Made by a program: the position numbers and the translations under genes. Source: a bacterium (lineage in GTDB: Bacteria > Patescibacteriota > Minisyncoccia > UBA6257 > GWB1-50-10). From it: DNA of 64,000 nucleotides. The DNA lies in assembly GCA_021791395.1 (NCBI GenBank), contig JAJYWR010000005.1, positions 21,259 to 85,258 on the forward strand, read 5' to 3'. Below are positions 9,554-57,562 of this stretch, in pieces. Under the pieces are notes generated by a model that was given only the letters and a program-made list of their open reading frames with translations, did no database searches and was not told the DNA's origin. The stretch's first letter is position 1; every line of letters starts with the position of its first letter.

Positions 9554-10621
9554 TTAAACTTGAGGTGCGTTTTCTTGGAAATATCTATTCAAAACCTTCA
9601 CAAATTCTCTCGTGTCCAAAAAATAATTTGGATAAGCCCTATGCAATTCTCTTGTTGTCTCCGCAGAAACGAGAACAATATCTCTATCCTCTTTGTTTTT
9701 TATCATTCTTTCTTCATACTTTGAATACTCAGAATTTGCCAGTTCTTCTTGTGATTTCTTATACGCCGTAATACTTAACTCTCTTGTTGTTAGATCCAGA
9801 TTTAAAAGATAAAAATCATACTTAGCACCCTTCTCTTTTTCGAAATCCTCAATAACCCTATGAATCTTTGTCCATTCGTTCATCTTTTTTACAACCTTTA
9901 ATTTTCTTGCCAGTACCCGTATCTGCTCTCGCAATTCTTGTTTATTTATAGGAGTTTCTGGGACTATAGGCGTTTCTTCCATATTCGCAAATGCAGAACT
10001 AACTAACTTAAAAAAATCCATCCAGTCTTTCTGCCCTTCATTCGATTTTATTGCCTGCCTAGTAAAATGATCCACTGTTTCCACTGCAGTCGCCCAATAA
10101 TGCTGCAACTTTGTCCTTATTTGTATCTCAATTAATAAACCATTATAATTCTCATTTTTATCGCTGAAGTATTTATAAACTAAGTGGACGCTTCTGTAAC
10201 CATCTCTCTTAGGACTTTGAATATGGTCATTTATTTTTGCCAATCCGTGTTTAATCCTGCTTTTTTTATATTTTTCAACAAGATTCTTTACATCACCAAC
10301 ACTTTGCAAAACTGCTCTGCATCCGCCAACATCTTGCATTTGAGACATCTTCATTGTACTGGTTTGTCCACGTCTAAGTTTTTTAATAATAGACGAGATG
10401 CGTTTAAGACGACGCACGACAAGGGCACTTGAATCAACTTGTTTGGATACGTGCTTAAGCCTCACGGCAAATATGTGGAGTGGAAAACTATGCGAAGATC
10501 TCCAATTACTCAAAACGTCCATTGCTTGCCCATACGATGACTGAGAATTATTTACTGCGACGAGAATTTTCCCCGCTTTATTTATCTGATTTTTTGTATA
10601 TTTTAATTTAGTCCATTCCAT
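9554..10621 (-). CDS. RelA/SpoT-homologue synthetase-domain protein (alarmone-synthetase fold only) with a ~150-aa C-terminal extension
   Basis: Synthetase motifs are RLKRISSIIKK, DVGGCR, GYRSVHLVY and EIQIRTKLQHYWA. There is no HD hydrolase, TGS or ACT region. GC is markedly lower than in the flanking genes. Confidence 0.85.
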   Translation of the reverse strand: MEWTKLKYTKNQINKAGKILVAVNNSQSSYGQAMDVLSNWRSSHSFPLHIFAVRLKHVSKQVDSSALVVRRLKRISSIIKKLRRGQTSTMKMSQMQDVGGCRAVLQSVGDVKNLVEKYKKSRIKHGLAKINDHIQSPKRDGYRSVHLVYKYFSDKNENYNGLLIEIQIRTKLQHYWATAVETVDHFTRQAIKSNEGQKDWMDFFKLVSSAFANMEETPIVPETPINKQELREQIRVLARKLKVVKKMNEWTKIHRVIEDFEKEKGAKYDFYLLNLDLTTRELSITAYKKSQEELANSEYSKYEERMIKNKEDRDIVLVSAETTRELHRAYPNYFLDTREFVKVLNRYFQENAPQV

Positions 10622-18503: not shown

Positions 18504-20891
18504 TTAGATGACGAGGTTGATAATTCTCCCTTTCACATATACCACTTTTTTGATTTTGGCGCTTCCGAGGGCGGCAGAAACGGTCTCAAGTTTCATCGCT
18601 GCTTCCTTCACCGCTCCTTCTTCCGCGTTGGGGGGGACTATAATGCTCCCCCGCCGCTTGCCGTTCACCTGGGCGACAACCTCAACCACCTCTTCTTTCA
18701 AGAGCGACGGATCGTACGATGGCCACGATTCGAAGTGCACCGACTTCTTGTTCTTCAGAAGATACCACAATTCATCCGCGAGGTGCGGTGCGAACGGCGC
18801 GAGAATTTTCAAAAAATCGCTCCAGACGCCCGCCGGAATGATCACTTCGTCGCTTGCGGCATTCATAAAGATCATCATGGAGCTTATGGCTGTATGGAAC
18901 GCCATTTTTTCAATGTCTTCCCCGACTTTTTTCACCGTCGCTGCAAGAAGGCGCTCGAGCTTTTCGTTCTTCGTTTTTCCGATCTCCTTTTCGTGCGCGG
19001 TGTCCCACGTGCGCCGCAAGAACCGTTTTACTCCTTCGATCCCCTTTGCATCCCAGGCAATCGCCCGATCGAAAGGACCCATGAACATTTCATAGACCCG
19101 CGCAACATCGGCGCCGTATGCCCTGACGATGGTATCGGGATTCACGGCGTTGCCGCGCGACTTCGACATCTTGACACCCCTCTCTCCGAGGATCATTCCT
19201 TGCGCCGTCCGTTTCCGGTACGGTTCGCTTGTCGGAACCAATCCTTGATCGTGGAGAAAGATGTTCCAAAACCGCGAATAGAGCAAATGGAGCGTCACGT
19301 GCTCCATGCCGCCGTTGTACCAATCGATCGGCATCCAGTACTTCAATTTTTTCATCGAGGCGAACTCTTTCGCATTCTTCGGATCGGCATACCGCAAGAA
19401 GTACCAGCTCGATCCGGCCCAATTCGGCATCGTGTCCGTTTCGCGCTTCGCGACCCCTTTGCACTTCGGGCATTTGACGTTCACGAAACTCACGACGGAA
19501 GCCAAAGGCGACTCGCCGTCGTCGCGCGGCTTATAATTCTTGACGGGCGGGAGGACAACCGGCAGATCTTTTTCCGGCACGGGGACATAGCCGCATTTTT
19601 CGCAGTGAATGATCGGAATCGGCTCGCCCCAATACCTTTGGCGCGAAAAGACCCAGTCGCGCAGGTGGTAGTTCACCGTCTTCTTTCCGCCGACAAATTT
19701 TGTGATCTCCGCTTTCGCCCGCTCTGAATCCATCCCGTCAAACTTCCTGGAATTCACGAGGTTTCCCTTTCCTTCCCAAAGTTCGCCCGGCGTTCCTCCC
19801 GAAACAACGTGGATGATCGGCAGATTAAATTTCTTCGCGAACGAGAAGTCGCGCGCATCGTGCGCGGGAACCGCCATAATCGCTCCCGTGCCGTACTCGG
19901 CAAGGACGTAGTCCGCAATCCACACGGGAATTTCTTCGCCGGTCGCCGGATTCACTGCTTTCACGCCCTTGAGCTCCACACCAGTTTTTTCCCGATCCTC
20001 CGCCGTCCGTTCTTCCTCCGTTTCTTTCCGTGCTGTTTTTACATACGCCTCAACCTCATTGAAGTTCGAGATCTTATCCTTCAATTTCTCCACGAGCTCA
20101 TGTTCCGGCGCGAGGACCATATACGTTGCGCCAAATAATGTGTCGGGTCTGGTTGTAAATACCTTAATTCGAAATTCAGAATTCGAAATTCGAAATTCCA
20201 GTTCCGCCCCCTCCGATCGTCCGATCCAGTTCACCTGCTGTGCTTTGATTTCGTCCAGATAATCCACCTTCTCCAAACCCTTCAGGAGCTTGTCGGCGTA
20301 TGCGGTAATTTTGAGCATCCACTGCGCCTTCTTCCGCTTTTCGACTTCCGCGCCGCACCGCTCGCATTTTCCCGCAATCACTTCTTCGTTCGCGAGACCA
20401 ACTTTGTCATTCGGGCACCAGTTGATATCAATCTCCGCTTTATACGCCAAACCTTTTTTGAAAAATTGAAGGAAGAGCCACTGTGTCCATTTATAGTATT
20501 TCGGATCAGTCGTGTTCACTTCGCGGCTCCAATCGAACGAAAATCCCAAACCCTTGAGCTGCTTACGGAAGTTTTCGGTATTCTTCTTCGTCGCGACACG
20601 CGGATCGACGCCCGTTTTGATGGCATAGTTCTCCGTCGGGAGCCCAAACGCGTCCCATCCGATCGGATAGAGCACGTTATACCCTTCCATCCGCCGCTTG
20701 CGAGATACGATATCCATGGCCGTAAGGCTCCGGATATGGCCGATGTGGAGCCCCTGGCCGGACGGGTACGGGAATTCGATGAGCGAATACCACTTTTTCT
20801 TCTTGGAAAAATCGACGGCTTTCCCGATGTCTTGTTTTTCCCATTCTTTCTGCCACTTTTTCTCTATCTTTTTGAAATCGTACTTCGCCAT
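18504..20891 (-). CDS. leuS: leucine--tRNA ligase
   Basis: HIGH is present as PYPSGQGLHIGH, the editing motif is TTRPDTLFGATYMVLAPEH, and KMSKS is VKMSKSRGN. Confidence 0.97.
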   Translation of the reverse strand: MAKYDFKKIEKKWQKEWEKQDIGKAVDFSKKKKWYSLIEFPYPSGQGLHIGHIRSLTAMDIVSRKRRMEGYNVLYPIGWDAFGLPTENYAIKTGVDPRVATKKNTENFRKQLKGLGFSFDWSREVNTTDPKYYKWTQWLFLQFFKKGLAYKAEIDINWCPNDKVGLANEEVIAGKCERCGAEVEKRKKAQWMLKITAYADKLLKGLEKVDYLDEIKAQQVNWIGRSEGAELEFRISNSEFRIKVFTTRPDTLFGATYMVLAPEHELVEKLKDKISNFNEVEAYVKTARKETEEERTAEDREKTGVELKGVKAVNPATGEEIPVWIADYVLAEYGTGAIMAVPAHDARDFSFAKKFNLPIIHVVSGGTPGELWEGKGNLVNSRKFDGMDSERAKAEITKFVGGKKTVNYHLRDWVFSRQRYWGEPIPIIHCEKCGYVPVPEKDLPVVLPPVKNYKPRDDGESPLASVVSFVNVKCPKCKGVAKRETDTMPNWAGSSWYFLRYADPKNAKEFASMKKLKYWMPIDWYNGGMEHVTLHLLYSRFWNIFLHDQGLVPTSEPYRKRTAQGMILGERGVKMSKSRGNAVNPDTIVRAYGADVARVYEMFMGPFDRAIAWDAKGIEGVKRFLRRTWDTAHEKEIGKTKNEKLERLLAATVKKVGEDIEKMAFHTAISSMMIFMNAASDEVIIPAGVWSDFLKILAPFAPHLADELWYLLKNKKSVHFESWPSYDPSLLKEEVVEVVAQVNGKRRGSIIVPPNAEEGAVKEAAMKLETVSAALGSAKIKKVVYVKGRIINLVI
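20164..20198 (-). repeat. in-frame heptamer array (GAATTTC-type, 5 units) inside leuS
   Basis: The coding strand reads GAATTTC GAATTTC GAATTCT GAATTTC GAATTAA, translated as EFRISNSEFRIK. Confidence 0.9.
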
Positions 20892-33966: not shown

Positions 33967-35073
33967 ATGAAAATTCTATCGATAGAAACAAGCTGCGATG
34001 AGACGTCAATCGCCTCAGTGGAAGCTTCCGGCGGCATCAGAGCTCCCCGCTTTAAGGTGTTGCAGAACATCGTTTCGTCGCAAATAGCGCTTCACGCCCC
34101 TTTCGGCGGCGTGGTTCCCAACATTGCCAAGCGAGAGCACCTCAAAAATCTACCCATCATCTTTAGGCAAATTTTTGTAAATCCTAAATCAAAAATCCTC
34201 AATCCTAAACAAACACAAAATACTGAGTACAAAATACTAAGCACAAAAGTGGACGTGGTAGCAGTAACAGTGGGTCCGGGTCTTGAGCCGGCTCTTTGGA
34301 CCGGCGTCAATTTTGCAAAGGAAATCCATAAAAACCATTTCCCAAAAGCGAAGCTCATCGGTGTGAACCACATGGAGGGACACCTTTACAGCTTTCTATT
34401 GCCACAGAAAACTCAATTTCCAATTTCCAATTCTCAATTTTCAAAAACGAAAATTTTTCCGGCAGTCGGCCTCGTGGTCTCCGGGGGGCATACCATACTT
34501 CTCCTCATGAAATCCCTCACGGAGTGGAAAAAACTCGGCGAAACACGGGATGATGCCGTTGGAGAAGCATTCGATAAAGTGGCGCGAATGCTCGGTCTCC
34601 CCTATCCCGGCGGACCCGAGATCCAAAGAGCGGCCGCTCCCGGAGACCCGTCATCCGTGAATTTCCCCCGCCCGATGATGAAAGATAAAAACTATGACTT
34701 CAGCTTCTCTGGTCTCAAAACATCAGTACTCTACTATATAAGAGACCACAAAGAGCAATCAAAGAATAAAAATTTCATCGAGGACGTTGCAGCGAGCTTC
34801 CAGGCGGCGGCTGTTGAAACGCTCGTTTATAAAACGGCGCGCGCCGTGCAAGAATTCAAGGCAAAATCTATCATCCTTGCCGGCGGCGTAGCCGCAAACC
34901 AATCGCTCCGTGAGACGCTGGTAAAAACAAGCAAGGAGCTCGGCGTACACTTTTTTGCGCCGCCTATGGCATACAACACCGACAATGCCGCAATGATCGC
35001 CGCCGCCGCATATATTCAAACACTCAAGAAAAAGAACCGCCGTATCACGGCCCAAGCGAATTTGAATCTTTGA
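33967..35073 (+). CDS. tsaD: tRNA N6-adenosine threonylcarbamoyltransferase
   Basis: It carries ILSIETSCDETS, GGVVPNIAKREH, VTVGPGLEPAL, HMEGH and VVSGGHT. It also contains two AT-rich low-complexity inserts. Confidence 0.9.
   Translation: MKILSIETSCDETSIASVEASGGIRAPRFKVLQNIVSSQIALHAPFGGVVPNIAKREHLKNLPIIFRQIFVNPKSKILNPKQTQNTEYKILSTKVDVVAVTVGPGLEPALWTGVNFAKEIHKNHFPKAKLIGVNHMEGHLYSFLLPQKTQFPISNSQFSKTKIFPAVGLVVSGGHTILLLMKSLTEWKKLGETRDDAVGEAFDKVARMLGLPYPGGPEIQRAAAPGDPSSVNFPRPMMKDKNYDFSFSGLKTSVLYYIRDHKEQSKNKNFIEDVAASFQAAAVETLVYKTARAVQEFKAKSIILAGGVAANQSLRETLVKTSKELGVHFFAPPMAYNTDNAAMIAAAAYIQTLKKKNRRITAQANLNL
34178..34248 (+). repeat. in-frame AT-rich module pair inside tsaD (AAATCC-type heptamers, then an AAACAC..AAAATAC module)
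   Basis: The sequence is TAAATCC TAAATCA AAAATCC TCAATCC TAAACAA, then ACACAAAATACTGAGTACAAAATACTAAGCAC. It is translated as VNPKSKILNPKQTQNTEYKILSTK. Confidence 0.9.
34414..34455 (+). repeat. in-frame heptamer array (CAATTTC-type, 6 units) inside tsaD
   Basis: The units are CAATTTC CAATTTC CAATTCT CAATTTT CAAAAAC GAAAATT, translated as QFPISNSQFSKTKIF. Confidence 0.9.
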
Positions 35074-35110: not shown

Positions 35111-37336
35111 ATGGAACACATGAACGCCGACTTTTCGAAGCCGTACGACCCGAAAGCGACCGAGTCCATGATCTACCAACAATGGCTCGATTCCGGCTAT
35201 TTCAATCCGGACAATTTAAAAATTAAAAATCCAAAAATCCAAAATTATGTAGTGTACATGCCCCTCCCGAACGTGACAGGAACACTCCACATGGGGCACG
35301 CTTTGGACAATACCGGATCGGATATTTTGGTCCGGTACTACCGCATGAAGGGCTTCCGGACACTCTGGCTTCCCGGAACCGATCATGCCGGCATCGCGAC
35401 GCAATACAAAGTTGAAAAAGAATTGCGCAAGGAGGGCGCCTCCCGGTTCGAGCTGGGACGAGAGAAATTTATCGAGCGCGTCTGGAAGTGGAAAGAAGAG
35501 TACGGCGGCATTATCATCGATCAACTCAAAAAACTGGGCGCCTCGGCCGATTGGTCGCGCCTTCGGTTCACGATGGACCCGGATTATACCAAGGATGTCC
35601 TCTCGGCTTTCGTTCATTACTACGAAAAAGGCCTCATTTATCGCGGCGAGCGCACGGTCAACTGGTGCCCGCGCTGTGGTACCAGCCTTTCCGAACTCGA
35701 GCTCGAGCATCAGGAAGAAAAAGGGTCACTGTGGTACATCAAATACCCGCTCATCGATACCAAACACGAAATACCTAATACAAAATACATTATTGTAGCC
35801 ACAACGCGCCCCGAGACCATGCTCGGCGACACTGCCGTCGCCGTGAATCCGAACGACAAGCGGTATGCGAAATTCATCGGGAAAACCATACGGCTCCCCC
35901 TCACCAATCGGGAGATACCGATCGTCGCCGACTTGAAGATAGATCCCGGATTCGGAACGGGGGCCGTGAAGGTCACGCCGGCGCACGATATCCTTGATTT
36001 TGAGATCGGCGGGCGGCACAAGCTCGCATCGATTCAAGTCATCGATGAACGGGGGAAAATGAACGCGAACGCCGGATCGTATGCCGGCATGAAAACGGAA
36101 GAGGCCCGGAAAGCGATCGTCGAACGACTGGCATCCGAGGGGCTGCTCGAAAAAGAGGAGTCTTATGTGCACAACATTACCATCTGCTATCGCTGCGGAC
36201 ACGTCATCGAGCCGATCCCCTCAATGCAATGGTTCCTTCAGATGGACAAGCTTGCCGCAAACGCCTTGAAGACGGTTCAATCTGGTAAAGTGGACATTCA
36301 GCCAGAAAATTTTCAAAAAATCTATTTCGATTGGTTAGAAAACATACGTGATTGGACGATCTCACGCCAATTGTGGTGGGGGCACCAGCTTCCTGTTTGG
36401 TTTTGTAAAAACCAAACAGGAAGCTCCAATTCTCAATTTCTAATTTCTAATAAAAATTTATCAGCCGAAGACTTCGTGGTATCCGTGGAAAAACCGGCAA
36501 CGTGTCCAATTTGTAAAAATTGCGACATGATCAAATCCCCCGACGTTCTCGATACCTGGTTCTCGTCGGCTCTGTGGCCCTTTGCCGGTCTTTCAGAATC
36601 CGACCGGAAAAATTATTATCCCGGCAACTTTGTTTCGAATGCACGCGACATTTTAAATCTCTGGGATGCCCGCATGATATTTTCCGGACTTGAATTTATG
36701 GGAAAGCCGCCTTTCCAAAATGTTTTCGTCCACGGTACCATCCTCACAAAAGACGGCAAGCGCATGTCGAAAAGCTTGGGAACCGGTATTGATCCGTTGA
36801 AATACATCGACCAATACGGCGCGGATGCGACGCGCTTCGCCGTCATCTGGCAGGCAAACGGTCAAGACATCCACTGGGACGAAGCGGCGGTCATGGCCGG
36901 CAGAAAATTTTGCAACAAGATATGGAACGCATCCCGCTTCGTCTTGGAACGAAGCGGAAACTCGAAATTCGACCTGCCTCTGCAGACAGAAACTCAAAAT
37001 TCATTGACCCCGCAGACCGAGGCCGATAAAAAAATACTGGCGAAACTCGCAGAAGTGAAAAAACAAACCGAGCGATACATTGAAACATTCGAATTTGCAA
37101 AGGCGCTCCAAAATCTTTACGACTTCTTTTGGCACGATTTCTGCGATATTTATCTCGAAGAATCAAAAGGACAGATCGCTGATGAGAAAACGGGGTCTTC
37201 CACGCAAGCGATTTTGCGGAATGCCCTTGTTGAGTCTCTTAAAATGCTCCATCCGTTCATGCCGTTCGTAACTGAAGCCGTCTATCAAAACCTCGACGAG
37301 CGGAGCAATCAATTCCTCATGACAACCGAATGGTGA
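35111..37336 (+). CDS. valS: valine--tRNA ligase (741 aa; appears to lack the long C-terminal coiled-coil of many bacterial ValRS)
   Basis: It carries PNVTGTLHMGHA, the editing motif ATTRPETMLGDTAVAVNP, and KMSKSLGT. Confidence 0.95.
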   Translation: MEHMNADFSKPYDPKATESMIYQQWLDSGYFNPDNLKIKNPKIQNYVVYMPLPNVTGTLHMGHALDNTGSDILVRYYRMKGFRTLWLPGTDHAGIATQYKVEKELRKEGASRFELGREKFIERVWKWKEEYGGIIIDQLKKLGASADWSRLRFTMDPDYTKDVLSAFVHYYEKGLIYRGERTVNWCPRCGTSLSELELEHQEEKGSLWYIKYPLIDTKHEIPNTKYIIVATTRPETMLGDTAVAVNPNDKRYAKFIGKTIRLPLTNREIPIVADLKIDPGFGTGAVKVTPAHDILDFEIGGRHKLASIQVIDERGKMNANAGSYAGMKTEEARKAIVERLASEGLLEKEESYVHNITICYRCGHVIEPIPSMQWFLQMDKLAANALKTVQSGKVDIQPENFQKIYFDWLENIRDWTISRQLWWGHQLPVWFCKNQTGSSNSQFLISNKNLSAEDFVVSVEKPATCPICKNCDMIKSPDVLDTWFSSALWPFAGLSESDRKNYYPGNFVSNARDILNLWDARMIFSGLEFMGKPPFQNVFVHGTILTKDGKRMSKSLGTGIDPLKYIDQYGADATRFAVIWQANGQDIHWDEAAVMAGRKFCNKIWNASRFVLERSGNSKFDLPLQTETQNSLTPQTEADKKILAKLAEVKKQTERYIETFEFAKALQNLYDFFWHDFCDIYLEESKGQIADEKTGSSTQAILRNALVESLKMLHPFMPFVTEAVYQNLDERSNQFLMTTEW
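35213..35247 (+). repeat. in-frame A-rich array inside valS (AAAAATCC x2 core)
   Basis: The sequence is AATTTAAAAATTAAAAATCCAAAAATCCAAAATTA, translated as NLKIKNPKIQNY. It lies just before the HIGH region. Confidence 0.85.
35761..35793 (+). repeat. in-frame AAACAC..AAATAC module inside valS
   Basis: The sequence CAAACACGAAATACCTAATACAAAATAC matches tsaD 34210..34237 at 24/28 positions. It is translated as TKHEIPNTKY, just before ATTRPET. Confidence 0.85.
36427..36461 (+). repeat. in-frame heptamer array (CAATTTC/TAATTTC-type) inside valS
   Basis: The units are CAATTCT CAATTTC TAATTTC TAATAAA AATTTAT, translated as SNSQFLISNKNL. It shares the 15-mer TCCAATTCTCAATTT with tsaD. Confidence 0.9.
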
Positions 37337-40119: not shown

Positions 40120-42087
40120 TTAAAGGAACGGAACAATGAGGAGGGCTACAATGTTGATAACCTTAATCAACGGATTGATCGCGGGACCTGCGGTATCCTT
40201 GTAAGGATCGCCGACGGTATCTCCGGTAACGGCGGCCTTGTGAGCATCCGATCCCTTGCCACCGAAGTTGCCCGATTCGATGTATTTCTTTGCATTATCC
40301 CACGCGGCTCCGCCAGAAGTCATGGAAATCGCGATAAAAAGTCCCGAGACGATTGTACCAATCAAGAACCCGCCGAGGGCCTCCTTTCCCAAAATGAATC
40401 CCACGAGGAGCACCATGACGACCGGCAAAAGCGCCGGGACAATCATTTCTCGGAGAGCCGACTTCGTCACGATGTCGACGGCCTTCTTGTAATCGGGTTT
40501 TGCCGAACCTTCGAGAAGCCCCTTGATTTCCCGAAACTGCCTTCGGATTTCTTCGACAATCGAGCCGGCCGCCTTGCCGACCGATTTCATGGCCATCGAT
40601 CCGAATAGGTAGGGGATCGAAGCTCCTAAAATGAGGCCGATTAAGACGTATGGGTTTTGGATGTCGAACGTGACATTCGAAGAGATCTTTTGAACCGCGT
40701 CCGTGTATGCGCTAAAGAGCACAAGTGCGGCGAGCCCGGCCGATGCGATGGCATATCCTTTCGTTACCGCTTTCGTGGTGTTCCCGACGGCATCCAAGGC
40801 GTCCGTGATCTTCCGGACCTCTTCCGGAGCACCGCTCATTTCGGCGATACCGCCGGCATTATCCGTGATTGGCCCAAATGAATCAATGGAAACAATGATG
40901 CCGGCAACGGAAAGCATCGAAACAGCGGCGATGGCGACGCCATAGATGCCCGCAAGCAAGTACGATCCAATAATGCCGGCAACGATGACAAGAATCGGCA
41001 AGAAGGTCGCTTCCATACCAACCGAAAGGCCAATAATGATGTTTGTTCCGTGTCCCGATTTCGAAGCATCGGCGATGTTCTTCACCGGCTTGTACTTTTT
41101 CGAAGTGTAATAATCCGTGATGATAACCATGAGCGCCGTCACGAGAAGACCGATGAGGCTCGAAAAGAATATATTCATAGCATTCCCTCCCATGAATGAC
41201 TGAGCGGCAAAATAGAACAAAATCGCTGCCACAATCAAGGCGACAGTGAGCCCTTTGTAGAGCGCGCCCATAATCGATTCGCTCTTGCCAAGTTTTACAA
41301 AGAAACTTCCGATGATTGAAGCAATAATCGCAAGGCCGCCCATGACGAGCGGAAAGATGAGTTGGGCGCCGGAAAGCGCAAGTGCGCTTCCGATCAAGAT
41401 CGAAGCGGTTAAAGTTACCGCATACGTCTCAAAAAGGTCGGCAGCCATGCCGGCGCAGTCGCCGACATTGTCGCCGACATTGTCGGCGATCACGCCCGGA
41501 TTCCGCGGATCATCTTCCGGAATCCCGGCTTCAACTTTCCCGACCAAATCGGTCCCGACATCCGCTGCTTTTGTAAAAATGCCGCCGCCAAGGCGGGCAA
41601 AAACCGAAATCAAACTTGCGCCGAATCCAAGGCCAATCAAACTCCGGATATCATGTGTTAAGAGAAAAAATCCCGAGACTGCAAGGAGACCGACGCCGAC
41701 AACAAGGAGTCCCGTGACCGATCCGGCCTTAAAGGCGAGCGAAAGCGCCGATTTCAACCCATGGCTTGCCGCATCCGTCGTTTTCGCGTTCGACCGGACG
41801 GCAACGCTCATACCGAGAAATCCAGCGAGAGCCGACGCGATGGCGCCGACCAAAAATCCGACGGCCGTAAGCCAGCCGAGTGCGAGATAAATTGCAACGA
41901 AAAGGACAACTGCAACAATGCCGACCGTCTTGTACTGCCGACCGAGATATGCGGACGACCCTTCTTGAATCGCTCTCGAAATCTCCTTCATTTTGTCGCT
42001 TCCCGAACTCTGCTTTTTGAGCCATAACGCGAGGTATGCAGTATAGAAAACCGCAAGAACTACAGGACCGAAAATCAAATAATTCAT
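40120..42087 (-). CDS. hppA: membrane-integral (H+/Na+)-translocating pyrophosphatase
   Basis: It is a 655-aa multi-pass protein with [38 protein letters not shown] and [15 protein letters not shown]. Confidence 0.95.
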
Positions 42088-55679: not shown

Positions 55680-56771
55680 CTACTTCTTGAGCTTGAGATT
55701 AATTCTCCGTTCAGTCGATTTTACGCTTTCTATTATAAAGGAATATTGTTCTCCTTGCGAGAGCTCTTTTTTCATTTCCGGTACACCGCCGAATTCAGTA
55801 ACCCTGATAATACCCTGGAAACCGTGATCCAGGTTCACGACGGCACCGAATTGATTCAAAGAATAAACCGTTCCCACAACTTCGTCTCCGTCCTTGAAAT
55901 ATTCTGAAACCTTCACCCACGGATCTTCTTTCAGAGCCTTGAGCGACAGCGAAATCCTGCCGTCTTTGATGTCGACAATTTTCGCCTTTACGACTTCATC
56001 AACCTTCAAAACTTCTTTGGGGTTTTCGATGATCCTCCAGTCGATTTCGGAAACGTGCACGAAACCTTCGACGGCCGGATTATCGGTAAACCGGAGGAAC
56101 GCGCCGAAATCAGCAACGCCCGAAATAATCCCCTCGATGACTTGCCCGACAGCGTAGTTCTTTGCGAGATCACGGGCAGAAAGTTCCTGCACCGCCTTCT
56201 CGGAAACGATGAGCTTCGAGGTTCGGGGGTTTACATCGATGATCTTTACTTCAAGCTCGGAGCCCACGAGGAGCTGGAGTGACTGGAAAATCTTCGATTT
56301 TTCCTCCTCGCTTACTTTCGGATAATGATCTTGTGAGAGCTGAGAAACCGGCAGGAATGCGGAGAGTCCTTTTATTTCCGCCATAAGCCCTCCCTTATTG
56401 AATCCGGTAATTTTTACTTTTAATATCTCTTCCTTTTCTTTCAATTCTTGGACTTCGGTCCACGATTTCTGTTTATCTGCTTCGGAAAGCGACAGTTCTA
56501 CGAGTCCTTCGTCGTTGTCGATATCAATGACTTTTGCATGAACTGCGTCTCCGGTATTCAAATTCTTTATATATTCCTTCGCATTTTGAAGTTCGCCGCG
56601 GTACACCGCGCCGGTCCCGTATTTCCCAAGATCAATGAAAAGCTTCGCTGATCCCTTTTCCAGGATTTTTCCTTCCACAAGATCGCCGACTCGGAGCGTC
56701 GGCAAAAACGAGTGGTTCGTCTTCAAAATTTGCCCGATAAGCCCTCCCCCGTTTTTTATATTGATCGTCAT
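55680..56771 (-). CDS. rpsA: 30S ribosomal protein S1-like protein (four S1 domains)
   Basis: It has four repeated S1 OB-fold motifs (GDLVEGKI.., GDAVHAKV.., GSELEVKI.., GQVIEGII.., GDEVVGTV..). Its stop abuts the ftsH start. Confidence 0.8.
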   Translation of the reverse strand: MTINIKNGGGLIGQILKTNHSFLPTLRVGDLVEGKILEKGSAKLFIDLGKYGTGAVYRGELQNAKEYIKNLNTGDAVHAKVIDIDNDEGLVELSLSEADKQKSWTEVQELKEKEEILKVKITGFNKGGLMAEIKGLSAFLPVSQLSQDHYPKVSEEEKSKIFQSLQLLVGSELEVKIIDVNPRTSKLIVSEKAVQELSARDLAKNYAVGQVIEGIISGVADFGAFLRFTDNPAVEGFVHVSEIDWRIIENPKEVLKVDEVVKAKIVDIKDGRISLSLKALKEDPWVKVSEYFKDGDEVVGTVYSLNQFGAVVNLDHGFQGIIRVTEFGGVPEMKKELSQGEQYSFIIESVKSTERRINLKLKK

Positions 56772-56853
56772 GATGATTGTTGCTCAAGCGCCGTTGATAG
56801 GGCCCCAAGCGAAGAAATGATAGCAGGAACGACCAAGGATGTCCACCTTGCAG

Positions 56854-56986
56854 AAAACCCAAAATCCAAATTCCAAATGCCACATCAGACTTCGATAATC
56901 AAACATCAAAGTGTCTTTCATTTTTTCATTCGGATTTTGATATTGATTGGGCATTTGTCATTTGAGCCTTGTCATTTTAAAATAGG
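56854..56986. repeat. paired 7-nt-periodic arrays in the divergent rpsA / 56990 promoter region
   Basis: The left array is AAAACCC AAAATCC AAATTCC AAATGCC. The right array has T-rich units of opposite polarity (..GATTTTG ATATTGA TTGGGCA TTTGTCA TTTGAGC CTTGTCA TTTT..). Confidence 0.75.
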
Positions 56987-56989
56987 GAC

Positions 56990-57562
56990 ATGGTAATCAC
57001 ACGCCAAGGAGACGGGTACTTCAAACTGCAATCCGGTGAAAAAGCGGTGCTTATCGACCCAGACAATCAGCGATCGTACAAGGGATCGATTCTCATCGTC
57101 GCAACAACGAAACCTTCCTTAACCGAGCCCGAGGATGGCGGACCGTTCTTTATCGATGGACAAGGAGAATATGACGTTTCCGAAATACGGATCGAGGGCA
57201 AAACCGCCGAGCACGAAGGGGAGGGGGTCGAAAAAACGGCCTACCGGATCGTTTTCGACGATATTGTGATCGGTGTTTTAGGTCCCGTTAAAAAGGAGCC
57301 GGACCCGAAGGTTGTGGAAGTTCTCCAAGACTGCGATATCCTCATTTTGCCGGGAGGAGAAAAACCATACCTCAATGCTTCTGCCGTCGCCAAGATGATA
57401 CGTCAAACCGAACCAGGCATCATCATTCCCTCTTTCACTAAAAACCCGAAAGAACTTTTAAAAGAGTTGGGCCAAGAAAACGGCAAACCGGAAGAAAAAT
57501 TGACCTTGAAGAAAAAAGATATTTCTCCCAAGGCAATGACCGTCGTGTGGCTTACCGCTTAA
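56990..57562 (+). CDS. hypothetical protein, possibly a degenerate MBL-fold (UPF0173-like) protein
   Basis: The overall pattern (KAVLIDP..., DILILPGG) resembles the family, but I saw no HxHxDH motif. Confidence 0.35.
   Translation: MVITRQGDGYFKLQSGEKAVLIDPDNQRSYKGSILIVATTKPSLTEPEDGGPFFIDGQGEYDVSEIRIEGKTAEHEGEGVEKTAYRIVFDDIVIGVLGPVKKEPDPKVVEVLQDCDILILPGGEKPYLNASAVAKMIRQTEPGIIIPSFTKNPKELLKELGQENGKPEEKLTLKKKDISPKAMTVVWLTA

Follow-up and report, generated by a model that had tools for sequence, protein, structure and literature searches.

In-frame heptanucleotide arrays in leuS, tsaD, and valS of a Patescibacteria genome are probably microsatellites that turn over in place

An excess of heptanucleotide simple sequence repeats (SSRs) in bacteria has been reported since 2007, and repeats of this unit length form the most abundant class of long SSRs (LSSRs) in most prokaryotic genomes (Mrazek, 2007, as summarized in PMC4679880, PMC4692102). 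Polymerase slippage has been proposed as the cause of heptanucleotide LSSRs (Mrazek, Guo and Shah, 2007, as summarized in PMC4679880, PMC4692102). According to the LSSR surveys outlined in the same two reports (PMC4679880, PMC4692102), units with a length that is a multiple of three are the likeliest to occur in coding regions, and SSRs are reported to be suppressed inside genes (Lin and Kussell, cited in PMC4692102). The present report concerns a 64-kb window (the whole stretch of DNA analyzed; contig JAJYWR010000005.1, GC content about 50%), in which AT-rich arrays of 7-nt units occur inside leuS, tsaD, and valS, the genes for leucyl-tRNA synthetase (LeuRS), TsaD, and valyl-tRNA synthetase (ValRS). 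A first-pass annotation had described three of these arrays as one DNA module carried by three tRNA-handling enzymes. The arrays are translated in frame and lie in loops or in a hairpin, their units turn over among orthologs, and period 7 is favored in the genomes that carry them. They are probably heptanucleotide microsatellites (i.e., LSSRs) that arise and turn over in place, rather than copies of a mobile or shared module.

Of the known repeat classes, the heptanucleotide LSSRs of prokaryotes come nearest. Like these repeats, the arrays have head-to-tail 7-nt units in few copies, a period-7 excess, diverse units, and a patchy distribution across phyla (as the class is summarized in PMC4679880, PMC4692102). 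Unlike them, the arrays in the window lie in the middle of genes, in frame and in essential enzymes, and are AT-rich in a genome of intermediate GC content; such a location in genes is unusual. To our knowledge, concerted turnover of units at a structural hairpin of fixed length has not been described before, and literature searches on Patescibacteria and the candidate phyla radiation yielded no account of heptamer repeats or low-complexity repeats. The claim that no element of this kind had been described was nevertheless overstated, given the excess of bacterial heptanucleotide SSRs reported since 2007 (as summarized in PMC4679880, PMC4692102).

Two other groups of bacterial heptamer repeats bear comparison. 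Geobacter metallireducens has 49 elements of four GGACCGG heptamers, located in and between genes (PMC2700814). However, this family is GC-rich, has a single consensus unit, and has been proposed to act as regulatory RNA (PMC2700814), whereas the arrays in the window are AT-rich, use several units, and show no evidence of regulation. The TAACTGA arrays of Beggiatoaceae, cyanobacteria, and Bacteroidetes and the cyanobacterial STRR/GGGNATC-type repeats are likewise scattered heptamer arrays of unknown origin, and the TAACTGA-type arrays are translatable in reverse orientation, e.g., as LSVISYQ repeats that are predicted to be beta-rich (PMC4679880, PMC4692102). They differ in being overwhelmingly intergenic, with one heptamer dominant per genome and related heptamers rarely repeated (PMC4679880, PMC4692102). 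In forward orientation, TAACTGA has stop codons, whereas the window arrays are coding and comprise several units.

Rickettsia palindromic elements (RPEs) are palindromic sequences of about 100–150 bp with a family consensus that behave as mobile copies in conserved genes. As in RPEs, the arrays in the window can add in-frame residues to surface regions of conserved essential proteins while function is kept. Unlike RPEs, they are tandem heptamers of 28–42 nt with no palindrome, no ends, and no consensus beyond the unit, and no full-length consensus family with a palindrome or hairpin was recovered; moreover, the arrays are inserted relative to orthologs in tsaD and valS but not in leuS. In Plasmodium and other eukaryotes with AT-rich genomes, proteins contain low-complexity insertions that result from replication slippage, mostly of triplet or homopolymer repeats. 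These insertions are also AT-rich and slippage-prone and form fast-evolving loops rich in N, K, I, and S in conserved housekeeping proteins (compare PMC3140889), but the genomes involved are uniformly AT-rich, whereas here the unit is 7 nt long and the host genome has about 50% GC. Contingency loci are similar in that SSRs inside reading frames mutate by slippage. However, their units are 1–5 nt long (some are 7), they occur close to promoters or 5′ ends in genes for surface or restriction-modification functions, and they act as frameshift off-switches; the host genes leuS, tsaD, and valS are essential, and the arrays lie in mid-gene positions and keep the frame in all relatives examined. The heptad iterons of ribbon-helix-helix (omega/ParR-type) proteins have a conserved unit and lie in promoters or centromeres beside the gene of their regulator. 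The arrays do not resemble them, as they are mid-gene and have units that are not conserved between orthologs; a cognate binding protein was not searched for.

The three genes encode proteins of 795 aa (leuS, 18504–20891, minus strand), 368 aa (tsaD, 33967–35073, plus strand), and 741 aa (valS, 35111–37336, plus strand), all with best matches in metagenome-assembled genomes of Patescibacteria/Paceibacteria (Minisyncoccia). The leuS array (20164–20198, minus strand) has five GAATTYY units, GAATTTC GAATTTC GAATTCT GAATTTC GAATTAA, that encode EFRISNSEFRIK in the leuS frame and form the CP1-entry beta-hairpin directly before the VFTTRPDT motif. The tsaD loop-2 array (34414–34455, plus strand) consists of CAATTTC-type units followed by CAAAAAC GAAAATT and encodes QFPISNSQFSKTK as a surface-loop insertion; within it, CAATTTC CAATTTC CAATTCT CAATTTT CAAAAAC (34414–34448) gives QFPISNSQFSK. 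The valS site-3 array (36427–36461, plus strand) includes CAATTCT CAATTTC TAATTTC TAATAAA (36427–36454), encoding SNSQFLISNK. These sequences, their in-frame translation, and the 23/28 identities between the leuS and tsaD arrays were correctly described by the first-pass annotation, and its end points at 34455 and 36461 take in one further degenerate unit. The peptide ISNS(Q/E)F that it assigned to all three enzymes is apparent in TsaD (TQFPISNSQFSK) and in LeuRS (ISNSEFR), but ValRS has SNSQF rather than ISNSQF.

The three arrays are far more than chance would produce. The pattern AATTNNNAATTNNNAATT has six overlapping matches in the window, exclusively at the leuS, tsaD, and valS sites, compared with 0.05 expected from 100 dinucleotide-preserving shuffles, none of which reached six. 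Expressed as sites, (AATTNNN)x3 occurs at exactly these three, all in frame (0.05 expected per window). At the strict threshold of a period scan, the window contains three period-7 arrays, compared with 0.00 in 30 dinucleotide-preserving shuffles; 17/21 matches recovered the arrays with zero false positives in shuffles, and at ≥19/21 matches no arrays were recovered in the window. Tandem Repeats Finder reported period 7 with 3.0–4.7 copies at 20166, 34414, and 36430, and about 10 period-7 arrays in the window overall, including three in tsaD and three in valS; the other unit types found were TAAATCC, AAAATAC-type, AAAAATCC, and ATACNNN. The period-7 score of the leuS array (0.79) is within the top 0.13% of 36-nt windows in the gene. 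In contrast to the strict arrays, lag-7 autocorrelation across all 93 AT-rich islands of the window was weak (z = 1.7), indicating that the periodicity is confined to about 8–10 arrays and ruling out the notion that all AT-rich islands have period 7. The window has three arrays with an AATT core plus no fewer than three other types of unit, and nearly all of the arrays are coding; related genomes have many unit types. As head-to-tail short units beyond chance, the arrays qualify as heptanucleotide SSRs. Assembly artifact had been raised as a concern, and it was not borne out: JGI, ENA, and Logan assemblies together have at least 24 contigs that encode LeuRS with the EFRIQNLEFRIK hairpin.

The leuS segment aligns without gaps to LeuRS of Thermus thermophilus (1H3N, GAEILFPVEGKEVRIPVFTTRPDT) and Escherichia coli (4AQ7), and its length is constant across 60 LeuRS relatives, save for a few lineages with large unrelated insertions. 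Judged from these alignments, the leuS array is not an insertion; the hairpin sequence appears to have been replaced while its length was kept. The idea of an in-frame micro-insertion therefore fails for leuS, and the description of this segment as a variable region is right for its sequence and wrong for its length. In an AlphaFold2 model, the segment is a confident beta-hairpin (strands 225–235 and 241–246; predicted local distance difference test, pLDDT, 87–90).

Among relatives, which were gathered by exact-protein look-ups, the CP1-entry hairpin is a five-unit heptamer array (36 nt) in eight lineages, with differing units. The unit is GAATTTC in the window; the closest relative, L001 (92% protein identity), has two copies of GAATTTC followed by two of GAACTCC, and the others have GAATTCA/GAATTTA (L003), CAATTCC in four copies (L005), AAGTTTC (L640), AAATTTC (L641), AAATACA (L642), and CAATTTC (L272). 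The period-7 score of each of these eight hairpins is within the top 0.4% of its own gene. Changes in the unit core appear simultaneously in all units; for example, the G of AAGTTTC converts Ile to Val and Asn to Ser. Such unit-wide changes point to homogenization at the DNA level, which neither point mutation nor peptide selection predicts. The comparison of orthologs indicates that the LeuRS hairpin arrays undergo concerted DNA-level evolution at constant length, and the suggestion of a concertedly evolving microsatellite, one of several in the first-pass annotation, fits the turnover of units at orthologous sites. Decay was also observed in the array of L001 (GAACTCC GAACTCC GGATGAA). Among the best 120 LeuRS matches, 26 of the 104 distinct hairpin peptides are encodable by a heptamer array (≤6 mismatches in 36 nt), compared with 0/120 shuffled peptides and 1/70 more distant LeuRS; the latter are sequences of 44–59% identity among the matches listed in a metagenome scan and are probably not Patescibacteria. 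In addition, residue identity between positions i and i+7 exceeds the expectation from column composition at variable hairpin positions (P = 0.003–0.011, with relatedness ignored).

The hairpin that precedes the threonine-rich editing-domain motif carries a heptamer array in three class Ia synthetases, namely LeuRS (TTRPDT), ValRS (ATTRPET, window 35757–35791), and the isoleucyl-tRNA synthetase (IleRS) of L202 (KFPISNFQFSKK... before WTTTPWT). The L202 array is located around residue 214 of a 1236-codon, IleRS-like open reading frame (ORF) in another Paceibacteria genome.

Other variation was observed in LeuRS of these groups. Some Paceibacteria LeuRS (P0024, P0029, and P0042) have an insertion of about 170 residues exactly inside the hairpin (Pfam PF06821/PF12697/PF00561), indicating that the hairpin tolerates very large insertions, and many other Paceibacteria LeuRS are fused to a NUDIX domain (PF00293). 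The LeuRS genes of L183 (Saccharibacteria; GISNFQFPISK and TISNFQFSISK) and L192 (Berkelbacteria; KQISNFKFQISN and DKISNFKFS) each contain two separate AATTTCN-type arrays elsewhere in the gene, which shows that one gene family has several independent array sites.

For tsaD and valS, the comparison with solved structures gave a different result. Loop 2 of TsaD is 12 residues longer and loop 1 about 17 residues longer than in Thermotoga maritima TsaD (6NAK). In ValRS, the excess over 1GAX is 10 residues at site 3 and 7 residues (21 nt, 3 units) at site 2. By alignment, then, the tsaD and valS arrays are true loop insertions, in contrast to the fixed-length replacement in leuS. In the AlphaFold2 model of TsaD (mean pLDDT 89), the two array segments are the least confident long stretches (60–62 for loop 1 and 45 for loop 2), and residues 148–157 of loop 2, which are disordered in the model, form the sole segment with pLDDT below 50. 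The remaining arrays of the two genes, all on the plus strand, were identified by Tandem Repeats Finder. The loop-1 arrays of tsaD (34178–34248; Tandem Repeats Finder) comprise a TAAATCC-type array (NPKSKILNPK) and then a 14-mer of AAAATAC-type. In valS, the site-1 array (35216–35247; TTAAAAA/AAAATCC; Tandem Repeats Finder) encodes NLKIKNPKIQN, and the site-2 array (35757–35791; ATACNNN x5) encodes TKHEIPNTKYI in the hairpin just before ATTRPET, at a position homologous to that of the leuS array.

Three close genomes (L326, L327, and L328; relatives at about 72–92% protein identity) were compared at these loops. At tsaD loop 2, the CAATTTC-type units of the window are replaced by CAAATNN x5 in L326 and GAATTTC/TAATTTC in L328, and L327 has a diverged ortholog. 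At tsaD loop 1, L326 lacks arrays and is 19 codons shorter, L327 is diverged, and L328 is different. At valS site 1, L326 has (AAAAATT)x4 and L328 has no array; at site 2, L328 is exactly 21 nt shorter; and at site 3, L326 has (AAATTCC)x3 and L328 has a repeat with a 14-nt period. Nucleotide identity between the arrays and those of the closest relative (L001 for leuS; L326 for tsaD and valS) is 58–61%, compared with 81–83% for the rest of tsaD and valS. The arrays contain 18 of the 19 gap codons of tsaD, and even within a TsaD cluster of ≥90% identity, loop 2 has an indel with surrounding substitutions. The arrays are thus hot spots of divergence and indels, with the gain or loss of unit multiples and the homogenization of units among relatives that characterize SSR instability.

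The resemblance among arrays at different sites is explained by a limited vocabulary. Because a heptamer array is read in three phases, no trinucleotide of the unit, taken cyclically, may be a stop codon. There are 42 stop-free necklaces (rotation classes of the 7-base unit) with six A/T, and the A-rich ones, i.e., AAAAATC (KNQKSKI), AAAATAC (KIQNTKY), AAAATTC (KIQNSKF), AAATTTC (KFQISNF), and a few more, correspond exactly to the unit types of the window. Few AT-rich heptamers are stop-free, and they encode polar peptides rich in F, I, N, S, K, Q, E, and P, such as xFxISN(F/S), so that the resemblance between sites would follow by convergence. The TC-to-CT variant, which converts Phe to Ser beside Asn in a turn, is present in some but not all orthologs; this patchiness looks like repeated selection rather than shared descent. 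The GC content at third codon positions (GC3) is 0.18 in the arrays compared with 0.64 in the rest of the three genes, and the ratio of A/T-ending to G/C-ending synonymous codons is 70:12 in the arrays and 427:681 elsewhere (Fisher P = 5e-17). This contrast, together with the GC-ward decay of arrays in closely related genomes, suggests that their AT-richness is not a matter of amino acid composition alone.

The three arrays in each of tsaD and valS occur in the same order of unit types (AAATCC-type, AAAATAC/ATAC-type, and AATT-type). This match is probably a coincidence, with a chance of 1 in 6 and a small stop-free A-rich vocabulary.

When the three AATT-core arrays are aligned with 30 nt of flank on each side, the regularly spaced invariant columns are the AATT cores, and the flanks have a few scattered invariant single columns without shared sequence. 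No element ends, terminal inverted repeats, target-site duplications, or shared flanks were found at the three arrays, and similarity is limited to the repeated unit. No signal of RNA structure was detected when the folding energies of the three arrays were compared with shuffles (z = −0.99, −1.8, and +0.85). A privileged role for the AATT core as a DNA motif was also considered and rejected: in viral contigs, AATTTCN arrays have 62 matches, and arrays of permuted heptamers of equal composition, with 53, 81, and at least 120 matches, are about as frequent or more so.

A scan for (AATTTCN)x3.5 with one genome per species found at least 120 loci. Among the matches listed, 31 of 80 titled loci are from Patescibacteria, a share that is indicative only and compares with an estimated few percent of the bases in the database; the others are from Bacteroidota, Acidobacteriota, Gammaproteobacteria, Nitrospirae, Planctomycetota, and other groups, some with 60–65% GC. 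Many of the AATTTCN arrays among these matches are in long ORFs, in the frame that gives FQFPISN, FKFQISN, or FEFRISN, and TAATTTC arrays, which contain a stop codon, are never within an ORF among the matches listed. In Patescibacteria, the array hosts include MnmA, UvrD/PcrA, MetRS, DprA, a Mur ligase, PGM/PMM, TatD, an IleRS-like class I synthetase, an RluD-like pseudouridine synthase, and a MiaB-like enzyme. With DNA repair, cell-wall, and sugar-metabolism enzymes among the hosts, a specific link between the arrays and tRNA-handling enzymes is ruled out. In 80 genomes with an AATTTCN array, the 8-kb flanks contain additional heptamer arrays with many unit types, at a density of about 120 per Mb compared with 0–14 per Mb for periods 5, 6, and 8–12. 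For Patescibacteria loci, 67% of the heptamer arrays are in open frames of ≥150 codons compared with 81% of random windows; for other phyla, the corresponding values are 42 and 84%.

In phage-like IMG/VR contigs (about 55% GC; L011 3519–3766, L019, and L364), one element is present in 4–5 intergenic copies, in which GGAAATT GGAAACT GGAAATT faces an inverted array, CCCAATTTC TAATTTC TAATTTC TAATTTC. In L011, it is present as a 78-nt tandem unit. The stop codon in TAATTTC excludes a coding role for this element, which has the potential to form a hairpin and may act in regulation or as a terminator.

Several other explanations were weighed against turnover of microsatellites in place. Chance similarity of low-complexity sequence or an assembly artifact is hardly credible: AT-rich low complexity does inflate similarity and the lag-7 signal over all AT-rich islands is weak, but three sites stand against the 0.05 expected, arrays occur at orthologous sites in independent NCBI, JGI, ENA, and Logan assemblies, and all of them are in frame and stop-free. 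A small in-frame mobile element that spread into leuS, tsaD, and valS in the manner of RPEs is very improbable. It could account for arrays that are similar or identical at 23/28 positions and share a TC-to-CT variant, for the inserted state of the tsaD and valS arrays relative to solved structures, and for a 24-nt stretch of the window tsaD array that recurs in the leuS hairpin of the unrelated contig L272. Yet the leuS array is not an insertion, conserved ends, terminal inverted repeats, target-site duplications, and hairpin potential are lacking, and the similarity consists of AATT cores only. Orthologous sites have different units, which implies a separate history for each site, the same genomes have arrays built from dozens of other heptamers, and convergence is what a small stop-free AT-rich vocabulary predicts. 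With similarity that ends at the array edges, relatives with other units or none, and many co-occurring units, the proposal of one DNA module by descent or mobility was not upheld. Selection on the peptide, with ISNS(Q/E)F or xFxIxN as a functional motif (e.g., an interaction or hairpin module) and the DNA period as a by-product of codon choice, is quite improbable. F233 is invariant, F-x-I-x-N-x-x-(F/Y/L)-x-I is common in Paceibacteria LeuRS, the LeuRS segment is modeled confidently as a hairpin, and the N-S variant (TCT for TTC) recurs with a polar residue in the turn. However, perfect DNA repeats such as CAATTCC x4 and (AAATTCC)x3 keep one synonymous codon set, and unit-wide changes affect the very residues on which selection would have to act (I to V, N to S, and prolines in both strands). 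The synonymous sites are strongly AT-biased against the usage of the genes themselves, the TsaD peptides are modeled as disordered and are wholly replaced in relatives, and the excess of i/i+7 identity falls at variable, non-structural positions.

That the arrays are functional DNA or RNA signals tolerated in loops, such as ribbon-helix-helix heptad iterons, signals for the nucleoid or for replication, or clusters of rare codons with AT endings, placed at domain boundaries to slow the ribosome and aid co-translational folding, is unlikely. The periodicity of the LeuRS hairpin is retained across many lineages despite unit changes, arrays are also found at the homologous CP1-entry hairpins of ValRS (window) and IleRS (L202), which is a domain boundary, and the codons used are rare in these genes (CGA, CCT/CCA, CTA/TTA, AAT, and ATT; GC3 of 0.18 compared with 0.64). 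Likewise, AATTTCN arrays are intergenic in phage-like contigs as repeated hairpin-forming units, and (AATTTCN)n is found across phyla, including genomes with 60–65% GC. However, a binding site should conserve its unit, and units differ between orthologs and between sites in one genome; the array has decayed in L001 and arrays are absent at tsaD loop 1 of L326 and at valS sites 1 and 2 of L328. There is no RNA structure beyond that of shuffles, composition-matched heptamers form arrays about equally often, and a pause needs no heptamer periodicity. Seven bp is not a helical repeat, and nothing supports a role for the helical phasing that the first-pass annotation inferred from three heptamers. 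A variant with a somewhat better, though still small, chance of being correct is that a heptamer-specific process that generates and homogenizes repeats within essential genes of Patescibacteria and some members of other phyla is a main source of lineage-specific loop insertions in conserved proteins and that some arrays, notably those at the CP1-entry hairpins of LeuRS, ValRS, and IleRS, are kept for a function of the array or of its AT-rich cluster of rare codons. This variant draws on the persistence of hairpin periodicity while units change, the GC3 contrast, and the 67% of Patescibacteria arrays in long open frames. A translational pause at the boundary between catalytic and editing domains and a protein-binding heptad array are possible functions under it.

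If microsatellite turnover in place is correct, slippage or misalignment that prefers 7-nt units would create, expand, contract, and homogenize short arrays. Selection in essential genes would keep the frame through net changes of 21 nt (3 units, 7 codons) or other multiples of 3 nt, or through length-neutral templated conversion, and the surviving arrays would be stop-free in all three phases. Tolerance of the encoded peptide would be a further requirement and would limit arrays to surface loops or sequence-tolerant beta-hairpins. In LeuRS, the F-x-I-x-N-x-x-F-x-I alternation would suit both strands of the CP1-entry hairpin, and a 7-residue xFxIxNx period that matches hairpin strands plausibly explains the repeated occurrence of arrays at the hairpins of LeuRS, ValRS, and IleRS. 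In TsaD and ValRS, arrays would add disordered or extended loop residues. They would be translated as ordinary protein, and a separate function would not be required. Slippage or templated misalignment is the molecular cause that we infer, with the arrays being nearly neutral.

Several points weigh against this explanation. A slip by one 7-nt unit shifts the reading frame, and a shifted frame in leuS, valS, or tsaD should be lethal, such that homogenization at constant length needs 21-nt steps, paired events, or templated conversion; all three are proposals, and none was directly observed. The explanation does not account for the preference for period 7, and for the low GC content of the arrays (15–30%, in a genome with 50% GC) it offers no more than a rationalization, namely that slippage is easier with AT-rich units and that homogenization outruns amelioration. 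The recurrence of arrays at the CP1-entry hairpins of three synthetases could hint at function. Of the eight LeuRS lineages, L640–L642 were picked because their peptides looked heptamer-encodable, and the unbiased figure is 26/104 rather than 8/8. The comparison of lineages does not separate independent origins from ancestral arrays that were later homogenized. Finally, the evidence from the host genome is that of the 64-kb window, and the counts from the collection scans are lower bounds.

Repeats with non-triplet units are expected to be purged from essential genes, yet here they are common, translated, and rapidly remodeled in core enzymes of Patescibacteria. If general, the process would account for much of the puzzling low complexity of loops, and of their variable length, in candidate phyla radiation proteins, and similar short peptides in unrelated proteins (ISNSQF, NSKFEIR, and NPKSKI) would reflect convergent translation of repeats rather than homologous motifs or mobile modules. 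It would also make the CP1-entry hairpin of LeuRS, with its length kept, a natural experiment on the rewriting of a hairpin by a DNA-level process, and the unexplained preference for 7-nt slippage would become testable in a clade with reduced DNA-repair capacity.

Other features of the window are minor. A further period-7 array of CCAAAWY-type (AAAACCC AAAATCC AAATTCC AAATGCC; 56851–56886) lies between the divergent ORFs 55680–56771 (minus strand) and 56990–57562 (plus strand), both of ≥100 aa, and thus probably in a promoter region. A tandem repeat with a 12-nt unit, GTCGCCGACATT x2.7 (95% match; 41458–41489), is located inside ORF 40120–42087 (minus strand); in contrast to the heptamer arrays, its unit is an in-frame multiple of three with ordinary GC content. 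ORF 9554–10621 (minus strand) has dense AT-rich islands despite the 50% GC of the contig and may have been acquired horizontally.

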